64,000 nt of DNA from contig NC_083761.1 of the NCBI RefSeq assembly GCF_963514075.1, forward strand, positions 49,797,777 through 49,861,776. The letters are read 5' to 3'. The notes under the pieces are model-generated. The model worked only from the letters and a program-made list of their open reading frames with translations, was not told the origin of the DNA and searched no databases. This DNA comes from Conger conger. Taxonomy: Eukaryota. Both the position numbers and the translations under genes were made by a program. Below, in pieces: positions 8,950 to 63,901 of this stretch; positions within the stretch are counted from its first letter, which is position 1, and each line of letters begins with the position of its first letter.

Positions 8950-9538
8950 AATTACATACAGTCCCTTCCAAAAGTATTGGGACAGCAAGGCCCAATTCTT
9001 TTGTTTTTGCTATACACTGAATACATTTGGGGTTGAGATAAAAAATAAATAAATAATGAACACGAGACAAGAGAATTTAATTTCAGTTTTTATTTCCTGG
9101 TATTTGCACCTAGATGTGTTAAAATACTTAGAACGTAGTACCTTTGGTATCAGACCACCCAATTTTTAGCTGAGCAAAAGTATTGGAACAGAGTATTTAA
9201 GTAATGAAAGTAAATAACACCTAATATTTGGTAGCATATCCCTTGCGACTCATTGGAATTACCTTCTGTTGCATTCTTCTTTTGTGATGCTATTCCACAC
9301 TTTGACTTCAGCCTCTTGCATGCTCAATTGGGTTAATTGGGTGGTCTGATACAAAAGGTAATATGTTCTAAGTTGTTTAACAAATCTATTAAAAAAGGAA
9401 GCAGGAAATAAAAGCTGAAATTCAGATCTGTCACCTCATGTATATCATTTGACCCCAAACTGTATAGTGTATAGCAAAAACAAAGGAATTGACCTTGCTG
9501 TTCCAATACTTTTGGAGGGGACTGTATATCATTATTAA
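8950..9538. mobile_element. Non-autonomous Tc1/mariner element with roughly 40-bp terminal inverted repeats
   Basis: Left end 'tacatacagtcccttccaaaagtattgggacagcaaggcc' is the reverse complement of the right end 'gaccttgctgttccaatacttttggaggggactgtatat'. There is no intact transposase ORF. Confidence 0.7.
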
Positions 9539-12500
9539 TACAGATTACCATCAACAGCTGCCCATATTTGGTAATCTGTTTATTAATAATAACAATTATA
9601 AAAAATGTGTTCTTCCATGTTGAGTGTTTCTGTGTGAAATCTTGAAAAATAAATTTGCATGTTAAAATATTATAACTGTTTTTATGTCTCCCGATTCCCT
9701 GCTCCCTGCTGATGTACACATTCTCTTTGGATCAGGTTGTGAGCACACCCCCACAATGTGTTTTGCACATTGTTAGCCGTGTACACACCACTATGTGTTT
9801 TGATAGCCTCTGTATTCCTGTCATGTCAGATAAACTTCTTAGGACTCGTCAAAAGAAAATGAAGTGACATCTGTGACAGTTTATCCAGGCTTGCATACAA
9901 TGGTTTTGAGAAGTCTCCGCTAATTTGTTATTCAATTTTCTAAATAGTCATGACATGTATTATGTTTTATGCACAAGACATTGTGGGAAGTAATTCAAAC
10001 CTATTTTGCCGTGATTACCTCCCCTGTTATCCTCTTCTCTCCGTTTTTCAGTTCTGATTGCTTGCACTATTGTTCCCCGTATTGGTGTAAATATGACATA
10101 TTAATAGATTTCTGATTTATACGTTTCGTTATGTAATATTCTATTATTTCTTAATGCTAGCATTTTTATATAGGTAGCAAAATATTAATCTTCACAGAAT
10201 ATTGTCATTTATTTATTATTTATTCAGGTATTGATTTTCTTATTGATAACAGACATTTTAATGTGAACTGCAGTTCTTATGCTGTGCCTGTACAGAGAGA
10301 GGGGTGCTTTTTTCAGTGTCAGTGGAGTATGTTGTTCTTCAGTGATGTTACTGTATTGTGTCTCTCAATCTGGCTGTGTCACTGCCCCGACTAAACAGCA
10401 TGTCTGATTGTATGAGTGTGAATTTATAATGTTGAATAAGTGTTCCTATTGCTATGGTTTGTTCTGTTCCTGCAGGGGTGCAAGGAAAAGGATCATGTTT
10501 ATATTTATATCAGGTATTTATGTACATTATCAAATACATTTGGAATGCAATAACCTTGCTATAAATTCTGTGTGTGATTACTCTGACCACTATGGCAGCA
10601 ATATAAAACAGGAATGACTTTAAACCATGATCTTCCCCTTTAAACCAAAGGAAACAGGAACATGAATAATAATGATTGGGTAAACAAAAATATCCTGAAT
10701 TTTAAATAATATTATTCTAACTCCATGGCAGGACTACAGACACTATTATTATATCTGGTACAATTATCAACATGAATAGTTGTTATGTAAGAGGAAAGAA
10801 AATGGTAGAACCATGTTGTTCTGAGCCATCAGTTCAATGATGATGATGATCATTATTATTGTTATTATTAGATATAAGTCATTTAGATGTATTTGTCCTG
10901 GGCATATGGCTGATACACATAACAATACAAAAGTACAAAACAATAACAACAAGCTACAGTAGTCATTTATCATAATGCAACCACAGGACTAAAAGTAGCA
11001 CAATCATTAAATATTAAAAACCTGTCACTCCACGTCATCCTCCCTACAATGGACTCCCACAGAGAGACTCCCTTTGTAAATGGGAGTTTGTGAATGAGGG
11101 TCAAAAGGCGTACCCGAGGCAACTCTCTTGGACCATGGACCTTAAATCTAAGATATACAGTGCAGTGCTTAAGCACGTGGACAGCGACACAATTCTTGTT
11201 AGTTTTTTTCCAGCACGTTGGATTTGAACTGATGCAATGAATATGAGGTTATGAGGTTATGTGCATTTCGCCAGCTTAAATTTGAGGGTAATTACATCCA
11301 TATTGGGTCATACATGTATACAAATTACAGCCATTTCCATACACAATTGTCCAAGGATTTATTTTTATATACAATAAAGTACAGATAAAAATACAATAAA
11401 ATACAGTACAGAGAAAAAACAATTTTATTGTCTCAATATTTATATTGACTATTAACTTCAATCTGCAAGAAAATACAAGGGGTGGTGCTTTACTATTCAT
11501 CTGTAAAATAAACTACAACAAACAGCTGTGAACAATGAATAATTATTCATCGGTTTGATATCGGCATAGTTTTAGGCTACGCACACTGACCAGTGGGAAG
11601 TGAGGTTAGTTGTATTGGATGTTTAATGATGATGTGAACATGAACAATATGAAAGCGAAAAAGGGATGGAAATGCAAAATGGTCTCAGTTTGAAAATGAA
11701 TATTTTGGCTATATCCAACCTCATACAATCAGATGTGTTTAGTAAAACAGCAGCTTTACAGGAACCCATCAATGATCTCCAGTCATTATATGCAGTTCTG
11801 ATTATTTCCAATTGTACAGTTAACAGAAAGTGAATCAGTACAGGTGCCATTTCTTTACATAATATGGTACAGAAGCTACAGCACTGCAGGTTAAAAAGAT
11901 GACATAACCAAGCATAAAGTAACCAAAATTCTCCATTATCCGTAACCCTGATACTATTCAGATTCCTTTCAAAATGTCCAGGTAGATTGAAAACCACTGA
12001 CTTTGCAATGACTATCCTGTAAGCAGAAAAGTATTGTATTATGAATTGTGATTCATTAAATGATCCTGTAATAGCCTTGTCTCAATCTCACAACACACTC
12101 ATGCACATACAGGTGCAAAATCAATACATGTTCCCTACCCAGGTTAAGTGTATAGGCTCCAATGACCCATAGAAAGACCCGGCATGCTAGGTGAAACTCA
12201 CAGCTCTAATATAAACCGATGTCTGGTAGTGTTTAAGCAGACGGGTGAATTCACACGGTACAGTGATAAGCTTATCCAGAATCCTTATGAGGAAAAGGGT
12301 GTACAGGGTGAACAAACAGCAGCATAGGATTGAAGAATTTAATTACAGGCTTTCCCCTTCACAGACACATAATTATTTGCAATGTCCTGCATCTCAGTAT
12401 TAATCAGATTGGCATTCACTTCAAGTTTAATTAGATAAGCTTGCATAGTGTGGAGAACACCATCAATGTGAGCCTCCTGCAATGGTTCAGTGGGCAAAGG

Positions 12501-13539: not shown

Positions 13540-13900
13540 AAAGTATGAAGCTAAATATTCAAATACATGTATAAAATGTAGCTAAATGCTTGAAACAATT
13601 AAATATTTAGCTAAATGTATTAAACATTGAATAAAATACCTCTCAAAATGTATAAAACATTTAGCTAAATGTTTCACACATCTAGCTAAACATTTAAAGT
13701 TACTAAAGTGTATTTGTAAAGCCTATTAATTTATAAATTTGTGAATTACAAATGTATTAAACATATAGCTAAATGTAAAAAATATATAAAATATGTTTGA
13801 TACATTTAGATAAATATTTAGCTAAAGGTTTTATACATTTAGCTAAATGTTTTATACATTGAGTTAAATATTTAGCTAAGTGTTTTATACATTTATCTAA
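13540..13900. repeat. AT-rich minisatellite; degenerate unit of about 22-30 bp built on 'tttagctaaatgttttatacat'
   Basis: More than 10 imperfect tandem units are visible. They are not separated by unique spacers. Confidence 0.8.
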
Positions 13901-19640: not shown

Positions 19641-22600
19641 CACAGTACTGTATTTAAAAAAATAACACATATAATGCATATTTGCATTGATGCCAACTGT
19701 TCTTTTGTTAATAAAATGTAATCCATTTTTAGGACTATAAACAAAACGGCCATTAGGAAAGTTATATTGCAAACCAAGAAGCCTTATTGTTGCGCTGTAT
19801 TAACTAATCGTTGCGATTAAGAAATTCCAGGCATGTTGTTCGTATAATGTTAATATTGTAAACCAGGATGTATTAATATTGCGAAATGTATATTTATGAA
19901 GTTTTTTCACGAAGACAGTTTATTATGTGTATTTCTACGGGACATACATTTTAATGGGTAATGGCATTCACTTCTCTTGAATAAAAGCAAATACAAACAT
20001 TAGCATCTGAGGTGGTTGTTATGCATCCACGTCCCCCCCAGGTGGTCGATAATAAGTGCTTTAAAACTTGCGGCATGATTTTAACTTATAAACTTGATTG
20101 CAAATACTGATTACACAAATGTATCCTAAGAGCAATTGGGGAAAAAGCCGCATGGGCACGAATGTGTTGGCACATCCCATGAGAATGACCAGCTGGGGAT
20201 AGATAAGTTCATCTTTGTTGTTATATTTGGTACACAAATATGACTGTGCAGCAGTGGAGGCTGGTGACTTCCAGAATTGAGGAGGCCATTTTTTTCCGCT
20301 TGCTCACTTCACTCGCGATGGAATGTTCCCTGTTCTCTTATCTGTCTTTGTGCTGGCCAAAGGCATACTATTTGGAGTGTAAGCTACAGTCAGAAAGTTC
20401 TGGCTGATGAAATTAATTGTGCAGAGCTTAGCCTTGTGCCTTCCTGAAGAAATGACATTGCTGTAAGTCCATGAGCCTGCCTGATAATTAAGCTGAGAAA
20501 TGACATTTGGATGTAATATAAATGCCAAGTGAACATGTGTAAAAGGCAGGAATTTTAATTATGTAGTTAAAAACAATTTTGTTTAGCTTACATTTTTCAT
20601 TCTTCTACAGCTTCAACATGTAATCACCAATTTAATCAAGTTTAGCATATAAAAAAGATAAGATAACACTTTCTTTATCATATGTAGTTTTATTCAATAT
20701 ATTTAATATAAAATATGTAAAAATATGGTTCCAGTTGGCTTTATCTAACGTTAACGTTATCCACTAGAGGGCAGCACTCTATTCGTATTTAGAGTGAATT
20801 TCCTCACAGAGCAACAATTCAGTAATTTGATATGGAAGATTATTAAATTGACTTGTAATAAAACGAAATGGACTACATTCAAAATAAAACTGTTCAATAA
20901 ATCCCAAATGGTGTCTAACATGACCTATTGAATGTCATTCTCACTCCCTAGTATCTGGAATCTGCATATCTCCAGCCCAAGATCTCAAATTGTGCCAGAA
21001 TCTCGCCGACTTCCGAGGTAGTTTTAAGCAAAAGTGTTTGGCCAAATGAGCTATAAGCTCCAGGGATGATAGCCAGGGGTGTTCTCTAAATTTCCTGAAA
21101 AGCACAAGTTGATAGGACACTCGTAGCCACTATGGCGAGTGTTTGTTTGACTGAAGTGACTAGCGAATTCTCAAAATGGCTTCTGTGTTGAATAGGAAAG
21201 GAAAGGATAGTTGATTCCAAATGAACCAGTAGCATGTGATTGGACGAACAAAATGTCAATCTTTCAGCCCTGGACACAATGCATGGTGAGGCCAGGCCTC
21301 CGTTGCCCACCCAGTTTCAGTGATCTGGCCAATCACATATTGGCATGAAAAAAAATGCATTACATTGACTTCTATGAAAAGCTAATTTCCTAGGGGAGGC
21401 CTGGCCTCCCTTAATACAAACTGATAGGGAAATCTGGCCTGTTGCTTTACAATTGCAATATTGGGTTTTAGCCATGGGAAAATTTAGATTTATGAACAAA
21501 ACTAAAATAATATGAATATAAAAAATAAAAAATATGTTTTTTGTTAAAATAAATAAATAAAATAAATATATTTATTGTTTTTTTTAAATCTCTCTCTTCT
21601 CTCAAATTATTGGGGAGGCCAGGCCTCCTCCACCTCTATGGAGGAGCCTCCACTGCTGTGCAGTCATAACTACAATATTTTTAAAAAGTAATGAAAAGCT
21701 GCATGTCAATAATTTGCTGAGGCTTGTAATTTTGTGGTTACAGAACGATTTAATGCTTTGTTTGCTTAGGCTATATGAAGTTGCCGCTGCTGCCATCTAT
21801 GATGAAATGCACTAGCATACCATTTCATAGTATAACGGAAATGCAATTCAGTGGGACATCCTCTTAACCTCCCCATTATTTTGATGATGCTGTCATTTCG
21901 ATATTATTACTGCCAATATTACTAATAACGTGACCTGCAAAATCATTCCTGTGTCCATTGTTTATGGTGATGAATCGATAAATAAATTAAAATTAAATAA
22001 ATCTGGCATGATTCCATCATATTATTATTTTGACCACATTATTTCTGTCTTTGCATGATGATGGTGCTGTTGATGATGAAGACTAATCACATATGAAAAA
22101 TAAATAGGCCAAATAATTAATAATGAGAATAGGTTCATATATTTAATTTGCTCTTTATTTTTAAGACAATATACTATGATGCTGATTAAGGTGGTGGTGA
22201 TGATGAAGATGATAAATCTGTCAATTACAAAGATTAAAACTTTATTAATATTAGTTAGTTCAGTTAGCCAGCTATCATTGTTCTACTGTCTAGCTAACCA
22301 GCTAGGTATAACTACTGCTCAAGAGCTAGCTTGTCGAACATTACATTTTACTTTTTCTTTTAAACATTTTTGTCATTTGGCAGACGCCTTTAATCCAAAG
22401 CGATTTACAAGTGCATAGGTTCTACCAGAAGTCAAAGCATCACATCCAGAACTAGGAAAATACACATGGAGTGCTGTTCTAAACATATAGTCATCATAAG
22501 TGCAAATTATTATTATTATTATTTTTTTTTTTGGGGGGGGGTTAGACAAGGATAGGGATATCAGAAAGGGGGGGCGGGGGAAATCAGGAGAGAGGACTAA

Positions 22601-24597: not shown

Positions 24598-24639
24598 TTC
24601 CCAAGTGCAAGTGTGGCTAGTGTGGGTTTGATACAATAG

Positions 24640-24965
24640 GTAAAAAAATGTGTTGTTAAAATATTGTTAAAAGACCATTGTAAATCCCTTCCTATCATTG
24701 AAAAAGGCTCACTGACTCACCCTCTGCCTGTGTTTATAGTCCTTAAATTCGGGTTTTAAAATATGCAGTCGACGGGCCGGCACTCCATACCAAAACATTG
24801 TACTGTAATTCAAGCTCATTGGTTGAAAATTGGTACTAATTGCCACAGCCAATGGTCTTTCAATGTCAGCACGTTCACAGATAAGGGGGGGGATAAACAG
24901 TGTAGTGCTTTGAGCATGTTTGTTGCTGCAATTCCTCTCTTGACCGTTTGAAGTCCAAAATGACC
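24640..24965 (+). mobile_element. TIR-MITE family 'X', uninterrupted copy
   Basis: Aligns with 3055-3295 plus 3960-4108, and with 32150-32600 in reverse orientation. Confidence 0.55.
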
Positions 24966-25606
24966 TATTGTACCTAGTGGACCTTGAGCGATTTCCGGGT
25001 CAGGAGCAAGGTAAAGAAAAAAAAGAGGAGAAACATAAACGATTGGAACGAGCCCTAAATCTTGCTAAAGATACATTTTAATATCATCTCAGAAATATGC
25101 ATCAGGATCTATTAGTTTCCTCAACAATTCCAAAATGCGAGTCCTGCACCACCCCAAGTACCTCTTTTAATTTGAAAATCACAGGTATTTAGTGGATTAT
25201 TTTTTCCATCTACGTAAATCTTTCCTAGGACCTAGGATCAATGTAGCCTAATAGTCTGATGTGGAGATGAATTGAGAAAAGTCTACTAATTTGGCCTTCT
25301 TCTATTCCTTGTTGTTTGTACATTCTCTTGCTACACCCTAGTGGCTGCTTGTGCACATATCATTACAACCTCCCTTGTGAAATACAAAAGAGGTAATACA
25401 TATTTATGTTGTGTACTGTTACTGTAACTTGTCATTTGTAAAAAGTTATTGCTTCATAACAACAACATATACATTTTTTTGATTGCCTTTAGAGTGACAT
25501 GACTGCATTGGCTCTTTACCTTTGTCCCTCTAGCTATGCTGCCATAGACCTATTCTAACAGCATTTTTCTTTATTGCACATGGCGAACCGATAAGGAGAC
25601 ATATAG

Positions 25607-28615: not shown

Positions 28616-29659
28616 ACTTTTTGGGCTAAAAATAAAATTGCCTTTATGTACTCATGGTTTGCCGTAGTGCAAGTAGATGAAATGCATAAAGAATTGGACA
28701 TTTGAATTTCAGTGCATTGGGAAGAAAAACAAACCAAGGCAGTGGCAGGACAGGCAGGGGGAGGCTTTTTTGTGCTATATTCCGCTTCATGTTCTTCCTT
28801 TCTCCCGATTACCTGTCCACGCCCCCTGCACCAGGTATGCCTTTCCTGTGTTTGTAATTGTCTCACTTCTTCTGCAGCAAGAGAGGTATTAATTGGAAGA
28901 ACTATCCACAACCAAGATTTTGAGAAAGCTTGTTAGCTAGATATTTACTTACTTGCCCTCCTGGACCCCTTGGCTGTGGATACCTCTTCCAATTAATCCT
29001 TTTATTGCTACAGAAGAAGTTGGTAAGTACTGTAGGATGTAGCAAGGGTTCAAAGTTATTATTGGCAGTGATGCAAAGTCCGTGTTCGGTTGTCCGTGTT
29101 CCTCCGCTCTCTCGCTAACGCAATTCTTCCTCTGTAAATTCCGGTTCAAAACTGACTGTGTATGTATGGTTGTATTTCTTTGTCAAAATTGAAAATTCAT
29201 CCTCTAACTCAACGAGGTTACCGTATTTTCTTTGGAGTGTCATGCGATTGCCTGGATGGGTGGCCGCCCATAAACCAGTCTCTGCATTCAAGGGTGGAGT
29301 TTGAGTGCCCGTTACCTTCTGGGAAACACAGGCTGGAGATTCAAGCCAATGACACTGACATCACTGGAAGTTTTGCCACATTATTTAGGAAACGGATATA
29401 CTGGCAATGACGGTATTTGAGTTTTTTCAAATACAGTAGATCAAGAAGTAATACAAAAAAACTAATCACCAATTAATTGTACAAATGTGAGACAAATTTG
29501 CCACTAAAAACCGTTTAATAAAAATCTACATCCTCTCAGAAAATCCATTTACTTTTTTACTTAACTTCTTCAATATATTTACAATGAATACATGACACAT
29601 CATTTACAATCTGTAACCGTGTTCAAGTTAGAGCAGATTTAAGAGATGTTGAGTGACAA

Positions 29660-30413: not shown

Positions 30414-31420
30414 TCACAAGTGAACCCTTTTATGATTTTTTAACGCACCTCCATCATAGAATGTCTTTCCACACTGGGTGCAGCAATATGGTCTCTCTCC
30501 AGTATGGATCCGCTGGTGTCTCTTAAGATTTCCTACTTGAGAAAAACTCTTTTCACACCACATGCACTGATGTGGTTTATCACCTGTGTGAATTCGCTCA
30601 TGTCTTCTCAGGTCACCTGACTGAGTGAATGACTTTCTACACCAGGCACAGGAGTATGGCCTCTCCCCTGTGTGTATTTGCTGGTGTATTTTAACATATG
30701 AGACACGACAGAAACACTTCCCACATTGTAAGCAGGAGAGCTGCCTTTCTTCCCTGCGATTAACTAAAAGACTCTCAGACTGAGCTTCACTGACAACTCC
30801 TTGGTCATATCCTGCGATTACACCCGTTTCACACAAAGTGTTTTTAATACTATACTGTGTCTTAGGGTTGTAACATAATTCAGAGGGCTGGTCAAACTTT
30901 AAGTCCATTTCATCAGACTCTGTTTTAATCTGGTCTGGTCTGAGGCTGGGTTGAAAGTTCAGCTCTGTGTTGACCGGATCCATCACTGAGACATCTGAAG
31001 TTTGGATGGAGTTTATTTCAGGATTTACTGATGAGGGTGAAACCATGGACAATGTGATTTCCAATGCCAGCTTCTTCAGTCCTGGAGAAACAAAGCTGGT
31101 ATCAGTCTCTTCCATATTGACAGACTGTAGCTCGCTATGCTCCTCTTCACTCAGGATGGTCCTCTGCGGTTCGATAATCCCCTCGCTCTCCCTAGTCACC
31201 GTGGTGTTAACAGGGGCAGTAGGGTTGATGGACTCATCACTTTTGACACAAGATGACAAGGTTGACTCCTCTCCTCTCTGTCTCTCTCTGTGATTCATAG
31301 TGAACTCCTGTTTCTCTTCAGTCAGCAGGAGCTCTGTATCCTGCCCCAGACTTGACCCCCACTCCTGCCGCTCTACTAGAGGCTTTTCCCTAGTGACGGA
31401 AAGAGCAGCAGGCTGTGCAC
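30414..31420 (-). CDS. FiNZ-type C2H2 zinc-finger gene 1, large 3' coding exon: Ser/Glu-rich linker followed by 4 tandem C2H2 fingers (…CGKCF…HTGERPY…); stop at 30414-30416
   Basis: A 362-aa ORF ends in canonical H/C-link fingers (HTGE[RK]PY). The acceptor 'atcctgaag|GTGCACAGCC' (exon start 31420) gives phase 1, which matches exon 1. The region is homologous to gene 2 (…AQPAALSV…ERQEW.SSL.QDTEL.LTEEK…). Confidence 0.7.
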
Positions 31421-32149
31421 CTTCAGGATGGAGAGAACTCATGTTAGTAAGACATCCTTGTGAGTCTACCTTTGGAAACTGAACAAGACATTTTTGGGCC
31501 ATTCCATGTCAAGTCAAATGAAGTGTACTGGAGCATCTTTTCAATTTCTTTATTTTTGTGTGGTGGCAGGCAATGATAAGGAATAGAAATCCTCTAAATT
31601 TAAGCTTAATATGCTGCTTTGTTTTTGTAATAATAATACATTTATTTTGAATAGCGCTTTTCAGGGAACAAAAAGACACGTTACGTAGTTAATCAAAAAA
31701 AATGTTAAATAAATCACATGGTTTTAAAAGCAAAAAGAGTTTTGAGTGCTTTTTTTGAATGTGGAAAGTAAGGTGGAATATCTTGGATGTTTTTTGAGAG
31801 AGAGTTCCAGAGAGGGGGCCGGCGATGGAAAATACTTGGCCACCCCAGGTCCGATGTTTGGTCTTTATGGAGGGGTAAGAAGATTGGCATCAGATGATTG
31901 AAGGTTACAAAGGTTACAAACAAAGATATTGAGTGTTGGATGTTAGGTTTTCACGTGATGTGATCTGTTGTTTTTTCATAGAAATAGCCTAAAGAAAAAT
32001 GAATTTTTTTTTATCCAAATGTCACTATTTATCCAAACGTACACTATCACAGTAAGCTAGCTGTGTTGACGCATTGACAGTAGGTACTTCAGCAGGCTAG
32101 ATAACATTAAACTCGCTCTAAATGCAGAGATGAAATAGTCTAAAGTGTC

Positions 32150-32760
32150 GCTATAGTTTACCCAAAAAGACTCAAACAATGGGACGCGCATTTGCGATAA
32201 ACAGACGTTCTCTCTTGTCTTCTGATTTTATTAAGCTTTCTTAAAGGTACAATAGGTAATTTCGGACTTCTAACGGTCAAGAGAGGAATTTCAGGAACAA
32301 ACACCCTCAAACCACTACACTGTTTATCCCACCCTTTCTCTGTGAACGCACTGATGTTGAAACGCCATTGGCTGTGGCAATTAGAACCAAATTTCAACCA
32401 ATGAGCTTGAATTATTGTAAACGATGTTTTGGTACAGGGTGCCGACCCTTCAAGTTCAACTGCATATTTTGAAACCCGAATTTAAGGACTATAAACACAA
32501 GCAGAGGGTGAGTCAAGATGTCAGTGAGCCTTTTTCAATGATAGGAAGGGATTTACAACGGTCTTGTAAGATGTTTTAACACAAAATTATTTCTTATTGT
32601 ACCTTTAAAGGTAATAAACAGACGGTTTATTGGTAAAAGTACAATAGGTCATTTCGGACTTCTAACGGTGAAGAGAGGAATCGCAGCAACAAACACCCTC
32701 AAACCACAACACTGTTTATCCCTCCCCCTTCTCTGTGAATGCGCTGATGTTTGAAACCGT
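32150..32760 (-). mobile_element. TIR-MITE family 'X' copy in reverse orientation, followed by a partial tandem second copy (32590-32760)
   Basis: Aligns as the reverse complement with 24640-24965. The termini 'ggtacaatagg' recur at 32240 and 32640. Confidence 0.5.
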
Positions 32761-33074
32761 TATTTCGAATCCAAGTGCTGGACGACAGAGCCAAAATAAC
32801 AGGAAAATAACAGTAATTGCTCCAACTGTCCAAATACATACGGACTCCACTGTCACGAACGTGCGACTACTACTTACTAAGTTATTCAACTGTAATCATT
32901 TTAGTAACGTTAGCCTTCACAAAACCGGTATATGCGCCCGAAGAGCCCAGGTTCTGGTTTGTGTGACAGCAAGAAACGACGACGATGTGATTAATGCGAC
33001 GAATGGCCAACATTTTTTGTGTTGTGTACTACTCAGATTAGCTAGCAGGGGAATATATTTAGCAATCTCCTCAC

Positions 33075-33264
33075 CCAAACAAGTCGACTCAATCTCCAGT
33101 CCGAATTCCCGCAATCTTCGCCTGAGACTCTCATTCTCTCCCTTTGTTTGGGCATTTTCCTCCTGGTATTCAGACACCACCTCTTTCACCATCTCCAGTA
33201 TCTCTTGGACAGCCACCATTAAACGCTCTGTCAGATAAGAGTTTAAGATCTGTATTTTAGTCAT
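33075..33264 (-). CDS. FiNZ-type zinc-finger gene 1, first coding exon (FiNZ domain); translation MTKIQILNSYLTERLMVAVQEILEMVKEVVSEYQEENAQTKGENESLRRRLREFGLEIESTCL(G)
   Basis: ATG at 33264. The peptide matches the fish N-terminal zinc-finger-associated (FiNZ) domain consensus (MTK.Q.LN.F.TERL..A..EI...V...I.EYQEE......EN..LRR.L). Donor 'G|GTGAGG'. Exon of 190 nt, phase 1. Confidence 0.7.
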
Positions 33265-34918: not shown

Positions 34919-35196
34919 GAAACGTAAAACATGTCAATGCAACATATTACTCCCAAGTTCCCCAACAATTTATATGGTTGAGTCACAGATGTGCCTCACT
35001 AATTATGATCCATCAGAGAATATGGGACTTACAATTTGATACAATGTGAGGCAATACAACAGTCCTAGCCCCTATGGAATGCTGCAACTTTGGAACTAGA
35101 CATTTGTCTGTTTGTCTTGCATTCAGATTTATTCCTGAGCTAATGACACCCTTAGGTGTATATATACTACTGCTGTTTGTTCTCTCTTTTCATGTC

Positions 35197-35237
35197 TGCC
35201 CTGATGAAGGCCACTATTTGGCCGAAACATGTTGGCA
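35197..35237 (+). ncRNA. Hammerhead-ribozyme core motif in the left PLE terminal repeat: UGCC-CUGAUGA-A-GGCC-acuauuu-GGCC-GAAA-CAUG-UU|GGCA (predicted cleavage after 35233)
   Basis: Seen in the sequence: the conserved cores CUGAUGA and GAAA, a 4-bp stem II (GGCC/GGCC) with a 7-nt loop, the palindromic CAUG where stem III would be, and a 4-nt potential stem I (UGCC/GGCA). This architecture resembles the minimal, dimer-forming hammerheads described for PLEs. Confidence 0.6.
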
Positions 35238-35757
35238 TTTTTTAGTATTCAACTATGAACTAGCCTTTTATAATAAAGCTGTTTTTTACTTCATTGGAAG
35301 AGTGCCTTGGATCCACTTCTTTTGCTCTTTTAACTGGATGGTTTCCCCATGTTTTTGGACCAAAGGGGTTTTGCTTAGGAGGTGCACCACTGCTTTGAGG
35401 TGTTGAGCATCAACCATACAGTAAGTGGCTGTTTTCTACCCACTTTTCTAGTAAAACCATGGAACATAATGGTTTTTCTTATTCTGAAGAAGAAGGAAGA
35501 CAAATTATTACTAGCTCATCACTGCTTGATGACACTCTGTTATGGACACAGATTTGAAAAGCATCTTTGTGGAATTGAAACGTCTTAAGGAGAAAGACAT
35601 CAAACTGGACCTTAATTCTATTACGCTATCAGACTATTGGAGAAAGGGATTTATCCCACGTGGTCTCAGAATTTAAAAGTTCCCAGTCTATGGCTCAAAA
35701 GACAATGATGTTTTTAAAAGTAAATGGGAAGCCATTCTCAACAAGTGTTCATCTGAC

Positions 35758-36249
35758 TTGATTCTTCTACTAATTGAAGAAGCCAAAAAGGATAGGCTAA
35801 TCATCCAAAAAGAGATTGATGAAATGGAAAAGAAGTTGGCGGACTTGTCCAGTGATTCAGAATTTGAGACTAAATTAAAAGACAATCTCAATAAATTCAC
35901 ACAGACACTGAAACAAGAAAAACTTCGTAAATTCCAACGTGATGTTAATGACTACAAAGACAATAAGGTGTATTCTTGGCAGAGATTTACAGCTCCACGT
36001 CACCGGGAACCCCAGCGTAGAGGACCCCGCACTGTGTCGTTCAACTTTACCAGCGAAGAAGAGGATTCTGTTGCACCAGTAGCACACGACCCTACTCTTG
36101 ATTTTTTAGACTACCCACCCCTAACAAGGGGAGACGCGGACAAACGCCCTACTAACAGAGGCCACAGAGGAAGAAGAGGACGAGGAGGGGACGCAAGAAA
36201 TCCACCTCACAAGTACAACATGAGGAGTCACGGTCAACAGAGACTGTAA
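35758..36249 (+). CDS. PLE N-terminal ORF (coiled-coil and basic region, 163 aa)
   Basis: A Lys/Glu-rich heptad-like region (…KKDRLIIQKEIDEMEKKLADLSSDSEFETKLKDNLNKFTQTLKQEKLRKFQRDVNDYKD…) followed by an Arg-rich tail. Located inside the PLE, upstream of the RT. Confidence 0.6.
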   Translation: MILLLIEEAKKDRLIIQKEIDEMEKKLADLSSDSEFETKLKDNLNKFTQTLKQEKLRKFQRDVNDYKDNKVYSWQRFTAPRHREPQRRGPRTVSFNFTSEEEDSVAPVAHDPTLDFLDYPPLTRGDADKRPTNRGHRGRRGRGGDARNPPHKYNMRSHGQQRL

Positions 36250-36356
36250 TCAATTTATCAGGTACACCACTCCAGGACATTCAGACTAAAGTTCTATCTA
36301 TAGGTCTTTCTTTTCCCCCTACTATTTCTTCTAATTTATTTGACATAAAAATCGAT

Positions 36357-38538
36357 TTGTTTCGCTTCTATAGGAATCTACATTTGAAGACATGGTACAA
36401 AGTGAATCCTTCACCTGTGTATACCCCTCAAGAAGGCCGCTCTTCCTCTACCCCTTTTAAATCTAAATCTATTTTTTGTCCTATTGTGCAAAATTCTACC
36501 TTGAACACATTCGAGAAAAAGGTTAACTATGAAGTAGATAATTTGTTGTCTAAAAGCAACAATAAATGTAGGCACAATTTGACTAGGGCTGAACGAGATG
36601 CTCTGAAAGAGCTCTCAGACAATAAGAACATTGTAATTAAAAGGGCAGATAAAGGAGGAGCAGTTGTGGTATGGGGTCTAGAACAGTACACTAATGAGGC
36701 TAATCGCCAGCTACAGGACACTACTTTTTACCTCCCTTAACAAACAACCCCATGGAGTCTTTAACTCAGGAACTCAAGTTGTTACTGTATAAAGCTAAAG
36801 AGGATAATCTTATTTCTGAACCAGAGTTGAAATTCCTTTTGAATTCCAACCCTCGCTTGGCTTCTTTTTATCTTTTACCCAAGGTCCATAAAAACTTGAC
36901 TAATCCACCAGGAAGACCGGTGATCTCGGGGAATGAGTCCCTCACAGAGCCCATTTCTAAATATGTTGACTTCTTTATTAAACCTTTGCTCCCTACTCTC
37001 CCCGCTTACATTCAGGAAACTACTGAGGTTCTTTCTAAAATTAAAGAGAATAGCTTTGTTGGTCCCAATGCTTTATTGGTTACTATGGATGTTGAAGCTT
37101 TATACACTAACATAGAACACGAACAAGGCTTATCTGCACTTAGATACTTTTTAGACAAACGTCCTTACCCACATGACCCCCCCACTGGCTTTCTTGCTGA
37201 CTTGACGTATTTTTGTTTCAGGATAAACTATACAAACAGATGAAGGGATGCACCATGAGGGCATGTTTTAGTCCATCCTATGCGGGTTTGTATATGGGTA
37301 AATGGGAGGAAGATGTAGTGTTTAATGCTAACAATACCTTCTTAGACAAGATCATTTGGTGGGCCCGCTATATAGATGACATTATTCTGTGGTGGAATGG
37401 TACTGAAGAAGAGTTGTTATCTTTCCATGATTTTCTTAATAATGCCAACACCAACGTGAGGCTCTCGTTGGAATATCATAAAGATAAGATTAATTTTCTA
37501 GATATTGAAATCAGTAAAGATGACAATGGTTACCTCCATACTTCTATATTTAGAAAGAATATACATAAGAATACTATACTCCATGCTAACAGTTTTCATT
37601 CCACTACTTTGATTAATAATATTCCCTTCGGTCAATTTCAAAGGCTACGCAGGATTTGTGATGATGACAACGATTTCAAATTGAAGGGAAGAGAGATGTA
37701 CAGCCGGTTTAGGGAACGTGGTTATTCTCCCAAGGTATTAGACACAGCTCTTTCCAAGGCTAACTCCCTTGAACGACACACACTTTTAACTAGGAAGCCT
37801 CTGTTGACTACCAAGAAAGATCGGATTTATTTCTCTACCCGTTTTAGCACTGAGGCTTTTGGTATACGTAACATCATCAGAAAGAATTGGGGATTAATCC
37901 AGTGTGATGACACATTACGGGAGGTCTTCCCGGACCCCCCAATTTTTACATTCAAGAGAGCACCTACCTTGGGAGACAAACTAGTTCATAGCCACTTACC
38001 TGCCAAAGAACGTGACACATGGTTGCCTAGAGTACCTAACGGCACTTTTAAATGTGGCCATTGCAATCAGTGTGACACCGTAATAAAATCTAAAGGTTTC
38101 ACCCATCCTATAACACAAATGTTTTATTCTACGAATCAGTTTATCAACTGTAAGACCACACATGTAATTTACATTTTGTTATGTTCGCTATGTAATGCTT
38201 TTTATGTGGGGCGTACTAAGCGACGATTACAGGATCGGTTAGCAGAGCATAAATATGCTGTTAAAATTAACAACTTTGATTATGCTATTGTGAAACATTT
38301 CAATGACGCTCATAAATGCAGATCTGTCTCTTTTTCAGCTTTTGGTATTGAACATGTCCCTTTGAACATTAGAAGAGGTGATAGAGAGAAAATACTAAAT
38401 CAGAAAGAAAGCCGTTGGATTTATAAACTCAAAGCTATGGAGTTCCCGGGCCTAAATGATTCTATAGATATGGTATCTTTTTTTATAAACCCCTTAGATA
38501 TGGGCCCTTTTTTAGTGTATTCTTTGTCTTCTTACTGA
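36357..38538 (+). pseudogene. PLE reverse transcriptase plus GIY-YIG endonuclease ORF, split across three frames (36357-36740, 36752-37243, 37213-38538); frameshifted, probably recently inactivated
   Basis: RT motifs and the GIY-YIG motif as above. Three overlapping or adjacent ORFs sit in frames 0, 2 and 1. Confidence 0.8.
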
Positions 38539-38832
38539 CTGTATTTCTCCTCTTACTATATGTTAATACTGTTACATGGCATAACGAGCAGGATAGTATT
38601 TGAATTTATATAGTGATTACTAGTTGCTCTCTATTTTTACTATCCTTTATAGCAGTTCTATGTATTGTACAGCAGTTCTATATATTGTTTGTTTACTGAC
38701 CTCTAGTGTTTTCTGCTTGTCTTGCATTCAGATTTATTCCTGAGCCCTCCCACTTTGCACAGCTGTGGTCAATCACCTTAATGACACCCTTAGGTGTATA
38801 TATACTACTGCTGTTTGTTCTCTTTTCAGGTC

Positions 38833-38873
38833 TGCCCTGATGAAGGCCACTACTTGGCCGAAACATGTTGGAA
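38833..38873 (+). ncRNA. Second hammerhead core motif in the right PLE terminal repeat (CUGAUGA…GGCC/GGCC…GAAACAUGUU). The stem I complementarity is lost (GGAA instead of GGCA).
   Basis: Same motif as 35197-35237 with 2 substitutions. Confidence 0.5.
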
Positions 38874-40171
38874 TTTTTTAGTGTTCAACTATGAACTAGC
38901 CTTTTATAATAAAGCTGTTTTTTACTTCATTGGAAGAGTGCCTTGGATCCACTTCTTTTGCTCTTCATATAAAAATCAGTGTTTTATACTAATTTACTTC
39001 ATTCCGATAAATAACTGTTTTTGCAATATGCCCACTCACAATAACAACACAATGAATGCATATCATTTATAATTTTATTATACATGTAACAGAAGCGGGA
39101 TGAAATATTGGGACTAGTGAGATGAATACAAATTAATCTTTTGAATGAACATTTTTTATATAAAATACACTTACTGTCTTAATTTACTCTTGTTAAGCAA
39201 GCTACCTTGAGTGTGACATCCCTTTTTTTTTTTTTTTTTTTTCAAATTAATAACTTTCACTTTTAATCTTGCTATGCTACCAATGGTGATATTTATGGAA
39301 TGCAGTGTCTTTTTCCCTGCCTTTTTCTCTATGTAAAAAAATATATATATATGAAAAGAATATGATAAATATGATGCTTAGTTTGGTGTACCACTGATAG
39401 TAAACAGAGAAAAAAAACAGACCATGTTAGCCAGTTGATTAGGAATGTATGCTTTTAAAGGTTCAGCAGGGTTAAATGAAATAGAGTGCTCCATAATGCA
39501 CTTTTTTTTTTCTTGATTTGGCGCTGTACACAATTTTAGATTCGTAACCAAACAAATCACATGTGGCTAAAGTGCAGATTTTTTGCTTTTATTAAAGTTA
39601 ATTTTTCACCGTGTAGAAGTGACAGCACTTGTCCAAACTGTAAAACTCCCACCACGTGACACAAATGAGGCTCTTGCTTTGCTATGTGGCCAATAACAGG
39701 CTAAAAAGGTAATCATAAGCCTAGAATCAAGAATACACACTAAAAGCTCTCTTGTATCTCTCGTAAAGAAATTGAATATACCCCATTAATCAGAAACACC
39801 AGCAGAGCAATTTGTCCCAAACATTATGGTCCCCTGAAATAAGGGGGACTTATATATAAAAAATGCTGTCATTTATACATGGTGAAACCAAAATGTATTA
39901 CAAAAATTAATAAACTCTGCACTTCAAGCACATTATGCACCATTTGATTGCAAATGGAAAACTCTGGAGAGCCAAATCAAGAAAAAAAAAAAAAAATGTA
40001 CTAAACATTATGGAGTACACACAAATAAAACGAATTAATAGAACTACAAGTAAACATTTAGCATACAACAGCTCCTAAAAAATGTGAGAAAGACATTAGT
40101 TTCATTAAACATATTTGGGGATCTGTGTTTCTTTAATGAGGAAAAAAAAACATCCCAAACATGACAATCCA

Positions 40172-41205
40172 TTAATTATGATTATCATGCTGCATATTTT
40201 TAAGACGTGAATGGGTACGCAAATGGTGATTTAGGTGGGTCCTCCTATTATAGGTTTTCCCACACAAGGAGCAACAATATGGTCTCTCTCCTGTGTGAGT
40301 TCTACAGTGAATCTTAAGGGTTCCTGATTCGATGAAGCCTTTCCCACAAACAGTACAGACATAAGGTTTCTCTCCAGTGTGAATTCGAACATGTACATTT
40401 AGATGTCCTATTTGTTTGAAAGATTTTCCACACTGAAGACAACTGTATGGTTTTTCTCCTGTGTGAATTCTTTGATGGACTTTAAAATGTCCTGCATGAT
40501 TAAAACATTTCCCACACTCTATGCAACAATACGGTTTCTCTCCTGTATGAATTCGCCTATGCAGTTTCAGCTGGCAAGCATGACTGAAAGACTTCCCACA
40601 TTCAGGACAGCCGTATGATCTTTGTCCGTCAAATGCTTCTTGCATTTCTTCAGCCTCCTGTGCTTCAGACTGTGATGCAGACCAGCTTTCTAACCCACTG
40701 CCATTGTTCATACTGTCTGAATTTAATTTACTGAAGGACTCTGAATCTGTGAGCTTTTCTGCCACAACGTAATCCACTCCATTAGGCTCTGCTTTAATCT
40801 TGCTAGATACCATATTAGGTACCGAGTCCACTTCTTCTGTGTTAACAACCTGAATCCTGAACAAATGGGAAGGGTTGATAGACTCTTGACCATAGTCATT
40901 TTTCACACTGGGAGCTGTGTATGTTGCACTTTCATGAGCTTCTGTGTATGTTGCACTTTCATGAGCTTCTGTGTTTAGTTCTGGTGTACAAGATTCCGAG
41001 CAATCTCGAGACTTTGTTATCCGGCTACACACTGGCTCCTCTTCTCTCTGTCTGATTCTGTGCCCCTCTGTGATCTCCTCTTTCTCTTCAGTGAGTGTGA
41101 GCTCTGTGTCCTGCCTGAGACTGGAGCTCCACTCCTGTTCACAGTGCTGCCGCTCTATGAGAGACCTTCCTCTCATAACAGGAAGAGCAGCAAGCTGTGC
41201 ATCAG
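40172..41205 (-). CDS. FiNZ-type C2H2 zinc-finger gene 2, large 3' coding exon: linker followed by 6 tandem C2H2 fingers; stop at 40172-40174
   Basis: 334-aa ORF. Acceptor 'ttctttctctccag|CTGATGCACAGC' (exon start 41205, phase 1). The fingers carry HTGEKPY links. The linker is homologous to gene 1. Confidence 0.7.
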
Positions 41206-59956: not shown

Positions 59957-61678
59957 CTACAGGGGTGTGAAAGTGTTTGCCGCCCCCCCCCTTCCTGATT
60001 TCTTATTTTTTTTTTGCATGTTTGTCACACTTAAATGTTTCAGATCAAACAAATTTAAATTAGTCAGACAACATTTGTATTATTAACCTCCTAAGACCTG
60101 GCGTACACATGCGTGGACTCCACATTATGGGCTGTACAACCATAATACTTAATTCTTAAGACCGAGAGTCCACATATGTGGACATCATTTTTCTCAAAAA
60201 CTACATCATGTCAAAAGATGATGCTTAGTTTTTATACTTATCAGGTCCCAATAAGCCCAAATAGCAAAGAGAAATTAAAAATGCATACCAAAAAAAGAGT
60301 GCGGGTCTTAGGAGGTTAAGGGAGAAACAAAATCCAAACCTACATGGCCCTGTGTGAAAAGGTGATTGCCCCCTAAACCTAATAACTGGTTGGGCCACCC
60401 TTAGCAGCAACAACTGCAATCAAGCGTTTGCGATAACTTGCAATGAATCTCTTACAGCGCTGTGGAGGAATTTTGGCCCACTCATCTTTGCAGAATTGTT
60501 GTAATTCAGCCACATTGGAGGGTTTTCGAGCATATACCGCCTTTTTAAGGTCATGCCACAGATCTCAATAGGATTCAGGTCAGGACTTTTACTAGGCCAC
60601 TTTTTCTTCAGCCATTCAGAGGTGGACTTGCGGGTGTGTTTTGGATCATTGTCCTGCTACAGAACCCAAGTTCGTTTCAGCTTGAGGTCACGAACAGATG
60701 GCCGGACATTCTCCTTCAGGATTATTTGGTAGACAGCAGAATTCATGGTTCCATTTATCACAGCAAGTCTTCCAGGTCCTGAAGCAGCAAAACAGCCCCA
60801 GACCATCACACTACCACCACCATATTTTACTTACTTATGTTACTTTTACGCCAGATGTAATGGGACACACCTTCCAAAAAGTTCAACTTTTGTCTCGTCA
60901 GACCACAGAGTATTTTTCCAAAAGTCTTGGGGAACATCAAGATGTTTTCTGGCAAAATTGAGACGAGCCTTAATGTTCTTTTTGCTCAGTAGTGGTTTTC
61001 GCCTTGGAACTCTGCCATGCAGGCCATTTTTGCCCAGTCTCTTTCTTATGGTGGAGTCATGAACACTGACCTTAACTGAGGCAAGTGAGGCCTGCAGTTC
61101 TTTGGATGTTGTTGTGCGGTCTTTTGTGACCTCTTGGATGAGTCGTCGCTGCGCTCTTGGGGTAATTTTGGTCGGCCGGCCACTCCTGGGAAGGTTCACC
61201 ACTGTTCCATGTTTTCGCCATTTGTGGATAATGGCTCTCACTGTGGTTCGCTGGAGTCCCAAAGCTTTAGAAATGGCTTTATAACCTTTTCCAGACAGAT
61301 AGATCTCAATTACTTTCTCATTTGTTCCCGAATTTCTTTAGATCTCGGCATGATGTCTAGCTTTTGAGGATCATTTGGTCCACTTCACTTTGTCAGGCAG
61401 GTCCTATTGAAGTGATTTCTTGATTGAGAACAGGTGTGGCAGTGTGCCACAGTTAAGTTTTAACAGGGGGGGGCAATCACTTTTTCACACAGGGCCATGT
61501 AGGTTTGGATTTTTTTTTCTCCCTTAATAAAAACCTTCATTTAACTGCATTTTGTGTTTACTTGTGTTGTCTGACTAATATTTAAATTTGTTTGATGATC
61601 TGAAACATTTAAGTGTGACAAACATGCAAAAAAAATAAGAAATCAGGAAGGGGGCAAACACTTTCACACCACTGTATA
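59957..61678 (-). mobile_element. Tc1-family DNA transposon, near full length, with terminal inverted repeats (TAcaggggtgtgaaagtgtttgcc … ggcaaacactttcacaccactgTA). The transposase gene on the - strand is interrupted by frameshifts (N-terminal 138-aa ORF 60846-61262).
   Basis: Inverted termini seen at 59958-59985 and 61655-61678. The ORF encodes the Tc1 HTH region (…RSGRPTKITPRAQRRLIQEVTKDRTTTSKELQASL…KHLDVPQDFWKNTLWSDETKVELFG…). The downstream DDE region is in other frames. Confidence 0.8.
60087..60315. mobile_element. piggyBac-like MITE of 229 bp with TIRs 'cctcctaagacc…ggtcttaggagg', flanked by a TTAA target-site duplication (60083-60086 and 60316-60319), inserted into the left TIR region of the Tc1 element
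   Basis: Comparison with the uninterrupted opposite Tc1 end (…ttattaagggagaaa…) shows that exactly TTAA is duplicated on both sides of the insertion. The insertion has perfect 12-bp inverted termini. Confidence 0.65.
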
Positions 61679-62066
61679 TCTTTCCATCAGTGACTTGATA
61701 TGCAATATGCATTAACTAAATGCTAAACATAGAAAATGGAGACACGATACTGTAATTTGTGAAACGTAAATGAGTTGACGGGGTTGTATACAAAGGCACA
61801 TGCATGATATGGAGGTAAAACATTTCTCATTCTGAAATTGTCCAGTTGACACAAACCCATTAAATACGCTTACAATAAACGAGTTCAAACTGCTGTGGCT
61901 TCAATGATCATAAATGGCACCAAACTATTCTATTCAGATCAGATAAAGTTGTTAGTATTGACTGTAAAGCTAGTGCTATGGGAGGGAGGTCACCACAAAA
62001 AACACGAAATTCAGAGTGCCGTACAGCAGAGAAGCACTGTAGAGTGACCGAGTTGGATTACACACC

Positions 62067-62291
62067 CTGTAGAGGCGACACCACTGCCTGTTGTCTCTTT
62101 GGCTTGGCAGCAGTTGATGGCTTCCTGTATAGGGGAGGCAAATTGGTGCGAAACATCCCTGTGTCCTTCAGGGCCTCCACACCCTTCTTGGAGTGTATTA
62201 CCACGTCTTGACCTTGTTCCTTTTGGTCCGCTGGGAATGGATTGCAAGCTTGTGCCTTCTTCTCCAGCTCCTTCTGTTTCTCTTTAAGTTT
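62067..62291 (-). CDS. kif22: kif22-like coding exon: KLKEKQKELEKKAQACNPFPADQKEQGQDVVIHSKKGVEALKDTGMFRTNLPPLYRKPSTAAKPKRQQAVVSPLQ (coiled-coil tail)
   Basis: Acceptor 'ctgtctctgcag|AAACTT' and donor 'CAG|GTGTGT'. Collinear with human KIF22 …LKTKQKELEAKMLAQ…AKPLKKAVVMPLQ. Confidence 0.65.
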
Positions 62292-62541
62292 CTGCAGAGA
62301 CAGTGCCATGATTTTGACGACAGCATTTTAAAGGTGACCGTGAGAACATCCGTTGATAGACTGGAGACAAAATTATACTTCGGCATGCACTACATTTTGC
62401 AATTTGCTTTAATTTTAGAACTGGTAATGGTTAAAAAAAAAAAAAAGATTTATCACAGAAGTCACAGAAATGACAGAAAGTCCAAGTTCTCGCTTTGTTC
62501 CCATAGACTATGCATGCAGTATGTATACTTTATTACTGTAC

Positions 62542-62662
62542 CTGAATCTCTTTGCGGGACTGGGCAACAGTCTTCAGCAAGTTGAGTCTCTCTCTCTCTG
62601 GGGATCCCATCATCATCTTCTCCAGTGCTAGCAGCCTGCTCAATACTGAGGAGCCAGCAGGG
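62542..62662 (-). CDS. kif22: kif22-like coding exon: (S)PAGSSVLSRLLALEKMMMGSPERERLNLLKTVAQSRKEIQ
   Basis: Acceptor 'ctctcccttag|C' (phase 2) and donor 'CAG|GTACAG'. Matches KIF22 …[24 protein letters not shown]. Confidence 0.6.
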
Positions 62663-62904
62663 CTAAGGGAGAGAGGGGAGTGGTCATTACAGAGCGCACA
62701 CGACAAATTACTGCACAATACAGCACATGGATGCAAAAGTTTTAATGATGGCCATCTCTCCTCCCACAGTGCTGGATCAAAAACGACAGAGCCAGGACTG
62801 AGGAGTAGGGACACTGCTTTCTGGCAGCAGAAGCTACGTGTGGCCACAACCTTGTAGTGACAGAAGAGGGCGACACACATTACATGGACTGTGTTCCAGT
62901 TCAG

Positions 62905-63300
62905 AAAGACTGCAAAATTAATTAATTAATTCATTCATTCTCCTAACCCGCTTATCCTAAACAGGGCCGCAGGGGGGCTGGAGCCTATCCCAGCATACAT
63001 TGGGTGAAAGGCAGGAATACACCCTGGACAGGTCGCCAGTCCATTGCAGGGCACACACACCATTCACTCACACACTCATACCTATGGGCAATTTAGACTC
63101 TCCAATCAGCCTAACCTGCATGTCTTTGGACTGTGGGAGGAAACCGGAGTACCTGGAGGAAACCCACGCAGACACGGGGAGAACATGCAAACTCCACAAA
63201 GAGAGGCCCTGGCCGACAGGGATTCGAACCCAGCACCTCCTTGCTGTGAGACGTCAGTGCTACCGACTGCACCATCCGTGCCGCCCGACTGCAAAATTGA
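62905..63300 (-). repeat. tRNA-derived SINE (family A), full-length copy including the 3' tail ('…ggataagcgggttaggagaatgaatgaattaattaa' on the - strand)
   Basis: 63036-63295 is about 95% identical to 1-240. The tail at 62905-63035 is the reverse complement of the typical family-A 3' region '…gccctgcgatgggctggcgacctgtccagggtgtattcctgcctttcacccaatgtatgctgggataggctccagc…'. Confidence 0.85.
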
Positions 63301-63777
63301 CCAGGGGAAATAAAGTACTCCGTGTGGAAGAGTAGGGGTGTCCAAATCCGATAACATTCAATACTGGCCAATAGCAATACTCATGTTTCTTGTCTTTTAA
63401 AAATTATTCAACAGCTAGCCTACAAACAAATGCCCAGCTTGGCTTAAAAGCAGTGCCACAATTCTAAGGCAGCAAGCAAGATAGGTCTAAGCTTAAGCAA
63501 CTGGTTTCATAAACAGCATCATTTGCAGTGGAGAATACAGTGCTTGTTCTGGAGCGACGGGGCATTCTGAAAACTGAAAGTACGGAGAAGCTTCGCTACC
63601 GGCCAGAATTCATATGCATCTTATAGCGTCAGAGAGGATCAGGTTCAGATTAGCGCGCATCCCTGCTGATACCCGGTCATTCAAATACGATGGTATCGGG
63701 AGCGGATACCGATCCTTTGATCGGATCAGTGTATCCCTATAAAAGACTGCAGTGAATGTGAAAGAAGAGACTTATAC

Positions 63778-63901
63778 CTGTGTGGCTGTGCAGGCTCAGA
63801 GCTTTCCTCTTGTTCTTCAGGCTGCTTCTCCTTGAACCTCTTCTTCTGGGGCTGAGTTGCTGCTTCATGACCCTGTTCCTGCCTGCCTCTCTTCCCGGAT
63901 A
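63778..63901 (-). CDS. kif22: Possible further upstream kif22-like coding exon: …SGKRGRQEQGHEAATQPQKKRFKEKQPEEQEESSEPAQPH(S)
   Basis: An open frame bounded by the acceptor 'tgtatcttag|TA' and the donor 'CACAG|GTATAAG'. The phase joins exon 62662. No direct homology support beyond its lysine/glutamate-rich character. Confidence 0.35.

Follow-up and report, generated by a model that had tools for sequence, protein, structure and literature searches.

We analysed a stretch of 64,000 nucleotides from the conger eel Conger conger (NCBI RefSeq assembly GCF_963514075.1, contig NC_083761.1, positions 49,797,777 to 49,861,776 of the forward strand; hereafter the window). Near its right end, a degenerate Tc1-like transposon is interrupted in its left inverted repeat by a second element of 229 bp, which has perfect 12-nt terminal inverted repeats (TIRs) and is flanked by a duplicated TTAA. 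This insert is probably of the piggyBac type, a non-autonomous DNA transposon that moves by cut and paste. Its span, 60087-60315, was read from the sequence, and it is made up as follows.

60087-60315, plus strand: 229-bp non-coding TIR element, candidate piggyBac-type miniature inverted-repeat transposable element (MITE), seen as a gap in the arm-to-arm alignment of the Tc1-like element
60087-60098, plus strand: left TIR, CCTCCTAAGACC, from the inverted-repeat search
60304-60315, plus strand: right TIR, GGTCTTAGGAGG, from the inverted-repeat search
60083-60086, no strand: TTAA, left copy of the target-site duplication (TSD), read directly and recovered by the inverted-repeat search
60316-60319, no strand: TTAA, right copy of the TSD, read directly and recovered by the inverted-repeat search

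In context, the sequence reads ...ACATTTGTATTA TTAA CCTCCTAAGACC...(205 nt)...GGTCTTAGGAGG TTAA GGGAGAAAC.... The two TIRs are complementary at 12 of 12 positions and mismatched at position 13 (T versus C); the first 11 terminal bases are CCTCCTAAGAC. Together with the flanking palindromic TTAA, the TIR forms a 16-nt perfect inverted repeat. A first-order Markov model predicts 0.025 such repeats, perfect over 16 nt and lying within 600 nt, for each 64-kb window. The edges of the repeat observed here are the exact edges of the gap in the Tc1 arm-to-arm alignment, and the extra DNA in the left Tc1 arm amounts to exactly 229 bp plus 4 bp. Within the 64-kb window, CCTCCTAAGACC occurs at the two ends of the insert and nowhere else.

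The host of the insertion is a Tc1-like element of the inverted repeat/direct repeat (IR/DR) type. Its features are listed here with the site in its right arm that corresponds to the insertion point; ORF denotes open reading frame, and L002-L004 are three full-length related Tc1 copies from the fish assembly GCA_977065575.1.

59960-61674, minus strand: degenerate Tc1-like (IR/DR type) transposon hosting the insert, with transposase remnants on the minus strand broken into short ORFs
59958-59959, no strand: TA target duplication to the left of the Tc1-like element, read directly
61675-61676, no strand: TA target duplication to the right of the Tc1-like element, read directly
59960-60082, plus strand: left Tc1 inverted repeat, outer part, up to the insertion site, aligned with the right arm and with the six arms of L002-L004
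60320-60373, plus strand: left Tc1 inverted repeat, inner part (inner DR), continuing right after the insertion site, 96% complementary to 61469-61517
61469-61674, plus strand: right Tc1 inverted repeat, uninterrupted, from the inverted-repeat search and the arm alignment
61524-61527, no strand: single unoccupied TTAA, the right-arm counterpart of the insertion site (paralogous 'empty site'), from the arm alignment

The host has the TA TSD, CAGT-type termini, long IR/DR arms and Tc1 transposase that define Tc1/mariner elements. Its ends read CAGG/CACTG, and TACAGGGG... at the left pairs with ...CACTGTA at the right. The arms are about 206 bp long, and the inverted-repeat search found their outer and inner repeats to be mutually related. 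The transposase is frameshifted; a 138-amino-acid (aa) ORF at 60846-61262 on the minus strand matches the Pfam family HTH_Tnp_Tc3_2 (E = 1.5e-26) and shares 85-96% identity with Tc1 transposases from many fishes. By BLASTN, the whole host element is 84-86% identical to the related copies L001-L004 and 84-85% identical to L002-L004. For its internal region, megablast gave an identity to related copies of about 90-91%.

We compared the arms by aligning the two arms of the window's element with the six arms of L002-L004. In reverse complement, the right arm reads ...TTTTTA TTAA GGGAGAAAAAAAAATCC..., and the 3' side of the insert resumes with the same GGGAGAAAC. The reverse complement shows GGGAGAAA after the right-arm TTAA, matching the 3' side of the insert. 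Collinearity breaks down on the 5' flank: a stretch of 30 nt, CAAGTAAACACAAAATGCAGTTAAATGAAG, which corresponds to 61535-61564 in the right arm, is missing from the left arm. The breakpoint, 60073/60074, precedes the insert by 13 nt. This 30-nt segment is kept in the window's right arm and in all six arms of L002-L004. Because it is present in both arms of these relatives, its loss from the left arm is a private deletion in the window copy. The 13 nt that separate deletion and insert, TTTGTATTATTAA, align with their counterpart TTTTTTATTATGAA in the left arms of the relatives, and there is therefore homology on both sides of the insertion point. As aligned, the flanks of the insert are contiguous Tc1 sequence.

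An earlier note on this DNA had described a 229-bp insertion in the left end of the Tc1 element, with perfect 12-bp inverted termini and a TTAA duplicated around it and single in the right end. Its coordinates agree with the arm alignment, CCTCCTAAGACC and GGTCTTAGGAGG pair along their full length, and TTAA stands at 60083-60086 and 60316-60319 against the one at 61524-61527. The note had named homology of the two Tc1 ends at the insertion point beforehand as a test of its account, and this homology holds on both flanks. It had also spoken of a clean empty site within the window. The single TTAA bears this out, but the site lies in the paralogous arm of the same element and is no allele, and the arms are not fully collinear, with the 30-nt deletion nearby. 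The order of events it gave, Tc1 first and then the TTAA element, is upheld: the insert interrupts the Tc1 left inverted repeat and, because it was inserted into a TTAA inside that repeat, it is younger than the Tc1 sequence. The insertion may have taken place in a progenitor Tc1 copy instead of at this locus.

We infer the superfamily of the mobilising enzyme from the target site and the termini. Elements of the piggyBac superfamily are recognised by a TTAA TSD, a TIR of 12-19 bp, first bases C[C/A/T][C/A/T] and asymmetric sub-terminal repeats (PMC5381638), and common starts are CCCTT, CCCTC, CCCAT and CACTA (PMC10813416). For non-autonomous elements, the Repbase rule asks for the same TSD as the autonomous element and for termini that match it at positions 1-11 with at most one mismatch (PMC4455052). 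The insert has the 4-bp TTAA duplication of piggyBac elements, though TA and TAA parsings of this single copy give the same empty site. Its ends read 5'-CCT...AGG-3', and its perfect TIR of 12 nt lies within the piggyBac range. The sub-terminal motif of the insert, described below, is asymmetric, yet it is unlike the sub-terminal inverted repeat of the IFP2 type. In salmon, two non-autonomous piggyBac-like families likewise have termini in which CCT follows TTAA, and copies have been found nested in Tc1 elements (PMC2198921). Taken together, TTAA and the termini point to piggyBac, as a good but not decisive indication.

The target site also bears on the specificity of the enzyme. In the window, 10.7% of TA dinucleotides lie within TTAA, and because of this a TTAA-specific enzyme is favoured about 9-fold over a TA-specific one. 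A degenerate terminus inside the insert is also preceded by TTAA, which lends slight added support to a TTAA-specific enzyme. The earlier note had called TTAA duplication diagnostic of piggyBac. The piggyBac assignment is indeed the best supported, but that claim is overstated, since Kolobok elements duplicate TTAA as well.

Several observations weigh against a piggyBac assignment. TTAA is palindromic, so that a TA (2-nt) or TAA (3-nt) duplication leaves an identical empty site, and there is one copy from which to judge. The same empty site results from a TTAA TSD with CC...GG ends, from a TA TSD with ACC...GGT ends and from a TAA TSD with CC...GGT ends. The commonest piggyBac start is CCC, not CCT as in the insert (PMC10813416). 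There is no second copy of the insert in the 64-kb window (BLASTN with word size 7; TIR with up to 2 mismatches), nor any copy in 13 loci totalling 232 kb, nearly all from fish and about 160 kb from eels. These loci were fetched around homologues of the Tc1 element and of the zinc-finger (ZNF) genes, in GCA_977065575.1, Anguilla, Synaphobranchus, Gymnothorax and Conger. The pattern of two TIRs found no match among viral, metagenome and prokaryote contigs. The window likewise yielded no autonomous partner sharing these termini, and its largest ORFs, which belong to zinc-finger genes and a candidate Penelope-like retroelement, contain no piggyBac transposase. A literature search on the terminal sequence returned unrelated primer matches alone. 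In its size of 229 bp, lack of coding capacity, TIRs and TSD, the insert has the generic traits of the MITE that the earlier note took it for. No multi-copy family of the kind implied by that term was seen in the DNA searched, with one copy in 64 kb and none elsewhere, though the element may belong to one.

The alternative that survives best, though it is quite unlikely, is that the insert is a Stowaway-like MITE of the Tc1/mariner type that duplicated TA. It would then comprise ACCTCCTAAGACC...GGTCTTAGGAGGT at 60086-60316, and the outer T and A would be the neighbours of the target TA. The empty site predicted by this alternative, T-TA-A, is the same as the one observed, and Tc1/mariner elements are plentiful in this genome, as the host element illustrates. 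However, just 10.7% of the TAs in the window are in a TTAA context, and the internal degenerate terminus again has TTAA before it. In addition, a start in ACC and a 13-nt TIR are atypical when set against CAGT/CACT ends (table in PMC2198921), and the insert has no similarity to the Tc1 element of the window.

Ranking just below it, and improbable, is an origin from another or undescribed group that targets TTAA or TAA, such as PIF/Harbinger (3-nt TAA, right end GGAGGT) or a Sola-type element (4-nt duplication). A TAA duplication likewise reproduces the empty site, and no autonomous partner has been identified that would name the enzyme. Against this, under a TAA duplication the two termini would no longer be equal (C... 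versus ...T), and the perfect 16-nt palindromic symmetry would be lost. The termini of the insert are presumably also unlike Harbinger/Tourist ends.

A Kolobok-type (T2-like) MITE is highly improbable. Kolobok transposases integrate at TTAA and duplicate it, the TTAA duplication is present, and Kolobok MITEs are abundant in some vertebrates, such as the T2-MITEs of Xenopus (PMC6004289). This origin is disfavoured because of the CC...GG ends, not because of TTAA: Kolobok elements end in 5'-RR...YY-3' (PMC9587614), with AG/AGGRR (PMC6004289), where the insert has 5'-CC...GG-3'.

It is scarcely credible that no transposon inserted at all and that the 233 bp are a chance indel, a rearrangement tied to the 30-nt deletion or an assembly artefact: that deletion does lie 13 nt upstream and the left arm is otherwise damaged, but the borders fall exactly on a perfect 12-nt TIR and on a directly duplicated 4-nt site of which the paralogous arm has one copy, 0.025 such inverted repeats would arise by chance per window even before coincidence with the borders is asked for, and the insert has its own internal repeat architecture.

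The insert is non-coding. Its longest ORF encodes 47 aa and has no homologue, and the stop codon of this ORF is provided by the flanking TTAA. Among 5.8 billion proteins, there is no relative of a 56-aa reading frame from the insert, and the exact ORFs of the window are absent from the same collection. No Pfam family reaches its cut-off in the insert; a match of the 47-aa ORF to zf-C2H2_ZFHX3 was rejected at 17.7 bits (cut-off 27). A match to S. pombe snR91 in Rfam was rejected as noise at 21 bits (cut-off 50), and there was otherwise no Rfam family. Folded as single-stranded DNA, the insert reaches -40.6 kcal/mol (z = -6.9).

The left part of the insert is repeated. The segment 60078-60118, comprising the left terminus and the next bases, recurs at 60143-60183 as a direct repeat of 41 nt with 71% identity. 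Three features lie in it.

60092-60118, plus strand: motif copy 1, TAAGACC-N7-CACAT-N2-GTGGAC, which overlaps the left TIR and is a candidate transposase-binding site, from the direct repeat
60157-60183, plus strand: motif copy 2, containing the perfect 16-nt palindrome GTCCACATATGTGGAC (60168-60183), from the direct repeat
60149-60152, no strand: internal TTAA, directly preceding a degenerate second left terminus, TTCTTAAGACC (60153-60163)

The degenerate terminus pairs with the right TIR at 9 of 10 positions (60154-60163 with 60304-60313). At up to 3 mismatches, the palindrome GTCCACATATGTGGAC has three matches, against 0.28 expected, and two of the three are inside the insert. Of the two ends of the insert, the left has the motif twice and the right lacks it, so that they are asymmetric. 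The repeat suggests that the 229-bp unit carries two left ends. In the simplest reading, these could stem from two adjacent or nested copies that shared a TTAA and were later mobilised as one unit. Nested or adjacent copies sharing a TTAA have been described for salmon piggyBac-like elements (PMC2198921).

We also searched with the motif. The motif pattern found no match in viral contigs, and the TIR-plus-motif pattern none in prokaryote contigs; the motif pattern matched two metagenome contigs, L005 and L006. As a relative of the insert, L006 was judged a chance match. L005 (JAAUYB010095606.1), a 2-kb eukaryote-like contig, was rejected as a copy of the insert, with which it shares just a 29-nt motif. 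It carries AAGACCCAATGTCCACATATGTGGACA three times, at 190-214, 547-573 and 1064-1090, and two of these form a perfect 27-nt inverted pair, an arrangement like that of transposable element ends. As in the left-end motif of the insert, the match includes the 16-nt palindrome, with identical spacing from AAGACC, and the likeness ends at 29 nt. Judged by this shared motif, the L005 repeats may be a distant relative of the insert family in another eukaryote, and we treat them as a lead alone. The left part of L005 resembles a retroelement protease ORF, which is interrupted at about position 185.

A more far-reaching interpretation is that the insert represents an undescribed, still active TTAA-targeting family. 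In that case, the left-end site AAGACC-N7-CACATATGTGGAC and GTCCACATATGTGGAC shared with L005 would mark a widespread or horizontally transferred lineage, and the insert would be a two-left-end composite that is possibly polymorphic in Conger conger. We regard this as unlikely.

For the piggyBac-type reading, we propose the following sequence of events. The Tc1-like element would have been resident first. An autonomous element at another place in the Conger conger genome would have provided a transposase in trans, most probably of the piggyBac type; this enzyme would recognise the CCTCCTAAGACC termini and probably also the left-end motif. The 229-bp element would then have been excised and integrated at the TTAA that separates the outer direct repeat of the left Tc1 arm from the inner one, and repair of the 4-nt stagger would have duplicated the TTAA.

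The event is a routine nested transposon in a repeat-rich fish genome, and the element is at most new and unnamed. It has little importance beyond annotation, but the locus gives a clean relative dating, Tc1 and then the TTAA element. The locus also suggests that, once this Tc1 family had spread, the conger eel lineage had an active piggyBac-type transposase. The ends and the candidate binding motif can be used for a repeat-library entry. Should individuals prove to differ in carrying the insertion, this would mean that a TTAA transposase has recently been, or still is, active in an eel, a point of modest interest to transposon biology and to the development of tools.

The locus fetched for the Conger conger protein COCON_G00031360 (L007; second Conger conger assembly GCA_029692045.1, CM056175.1:34,696,449-34,717,333) is 99.7% identical to positions 20801-41304 of the window in reverse orientation, which marks the window as conger eel DNA of a different assembly or haplotype. 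At positions 11910-12279 of this locus, there is a 370-bp tRNA-derived short interspersed nuclear element (SINE) that is absent from the window at about 29394-29410, and the aligned blocks share about 17 nt at the site, which is what a target duplication would produce. From the alignment, this difference looks like a SINE insertion that is polymorphic among individuals or haplotypes. Further members of that SINE family lie in the window at 62929-63285 and 9-242.

A cluster of C2H2 zinc-finger genes occupies 27-41 kb on the minus strand, with ORFs at 30414-31502 and 40172-41176 and N-terminal coiled exons such as that at 32917-33264. In its aligned part, the ORF at 30414-31502 (minus strand) matches Conger conger COCON_G00031360 with 100% identity, and its next best matches are in other eels. 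Self-matches point to internal segmental repeats (24632-24975 with 32245-32601; 35141-35329 with 38779-38965). The Penelope-like retroelement candidate lies at 35758-38538 on the plus strand and has ORFs of 163, 127, 163 and 441 aa, in which reverse-transcriptase-like motifs were recognised by eye. The 441-aa ORF gave a sub-threshold GIY-YIG match (20.4 bits; cut-off 22.6). Other perfect inverted-repeat pairs of at least 16 nt within 600 nt are at 9000-9514, 13605-13860, 39502-39991 and 21395-21628. None of them is flanked by TTAA, and they are probably short TIR elements or palindromic repeats. Exons of a host gene at 62058-63900 (minus strand), some 400 bp beyond the right end of the Tc1-like element, encode a charged, coiled-coil-like protein (...LLALEKMMMGSPERERLNLLKTVAQSRKEIQ / KLKEKQKELEKK...SPLQGV*), and the gene runs past the end of the window.

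Among known systems, human MER85 and MER75 are vertebrate piggyBac MITEs, short TTAA-flanked internal-deletion derivatives that were mobilised in trans; they differ from the insert in host lineage and presumably in terminal sequence. The Kolobok T2-MITEs of Xenopus are likewise small and non-coding and duplicate TTAA, but their termini are 5'-RR...YY-3' (AGGRR), whereas those of the insert are 5'-CC...GG-3' (PMC6004289, PMC9587614). Like piggyBac (IFP2) of Trichoplusia ni and its kin, the insert has a TTAA duplication and a TIR in the 12-19 bp range that starts with C, and the asymmetry of its sub-terminal motif may be a further likeness (PMC5381638). Unlike IFP2, it has no transposase gene and starts with CCT, not CCC, and its sub-terminal motif is a left-end direct repeat where IFP2 has a 19-bp sub-terminal inverted repeat. 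Compared by description, the insert also differs from pTSsa1 and pTSsa2 of Atlantic salmon, which are about 1.4 kb long, have a TIR of about 18-22 bp and start with CCTG, whereas the insert is 229 bp long, has a 12-bp TIR and starts with CCTC. Like the insert, however, these are teleost elements with TTAA flanks, a 5'-CCT start, short TIRs and no transposase ORF (de Boer et al. 2007, PMC2198921). Their copies are nested in Tc1-like elements and in each other, sometimes sharing a TTAA, and the insert likewise lies in a Tc1 element.

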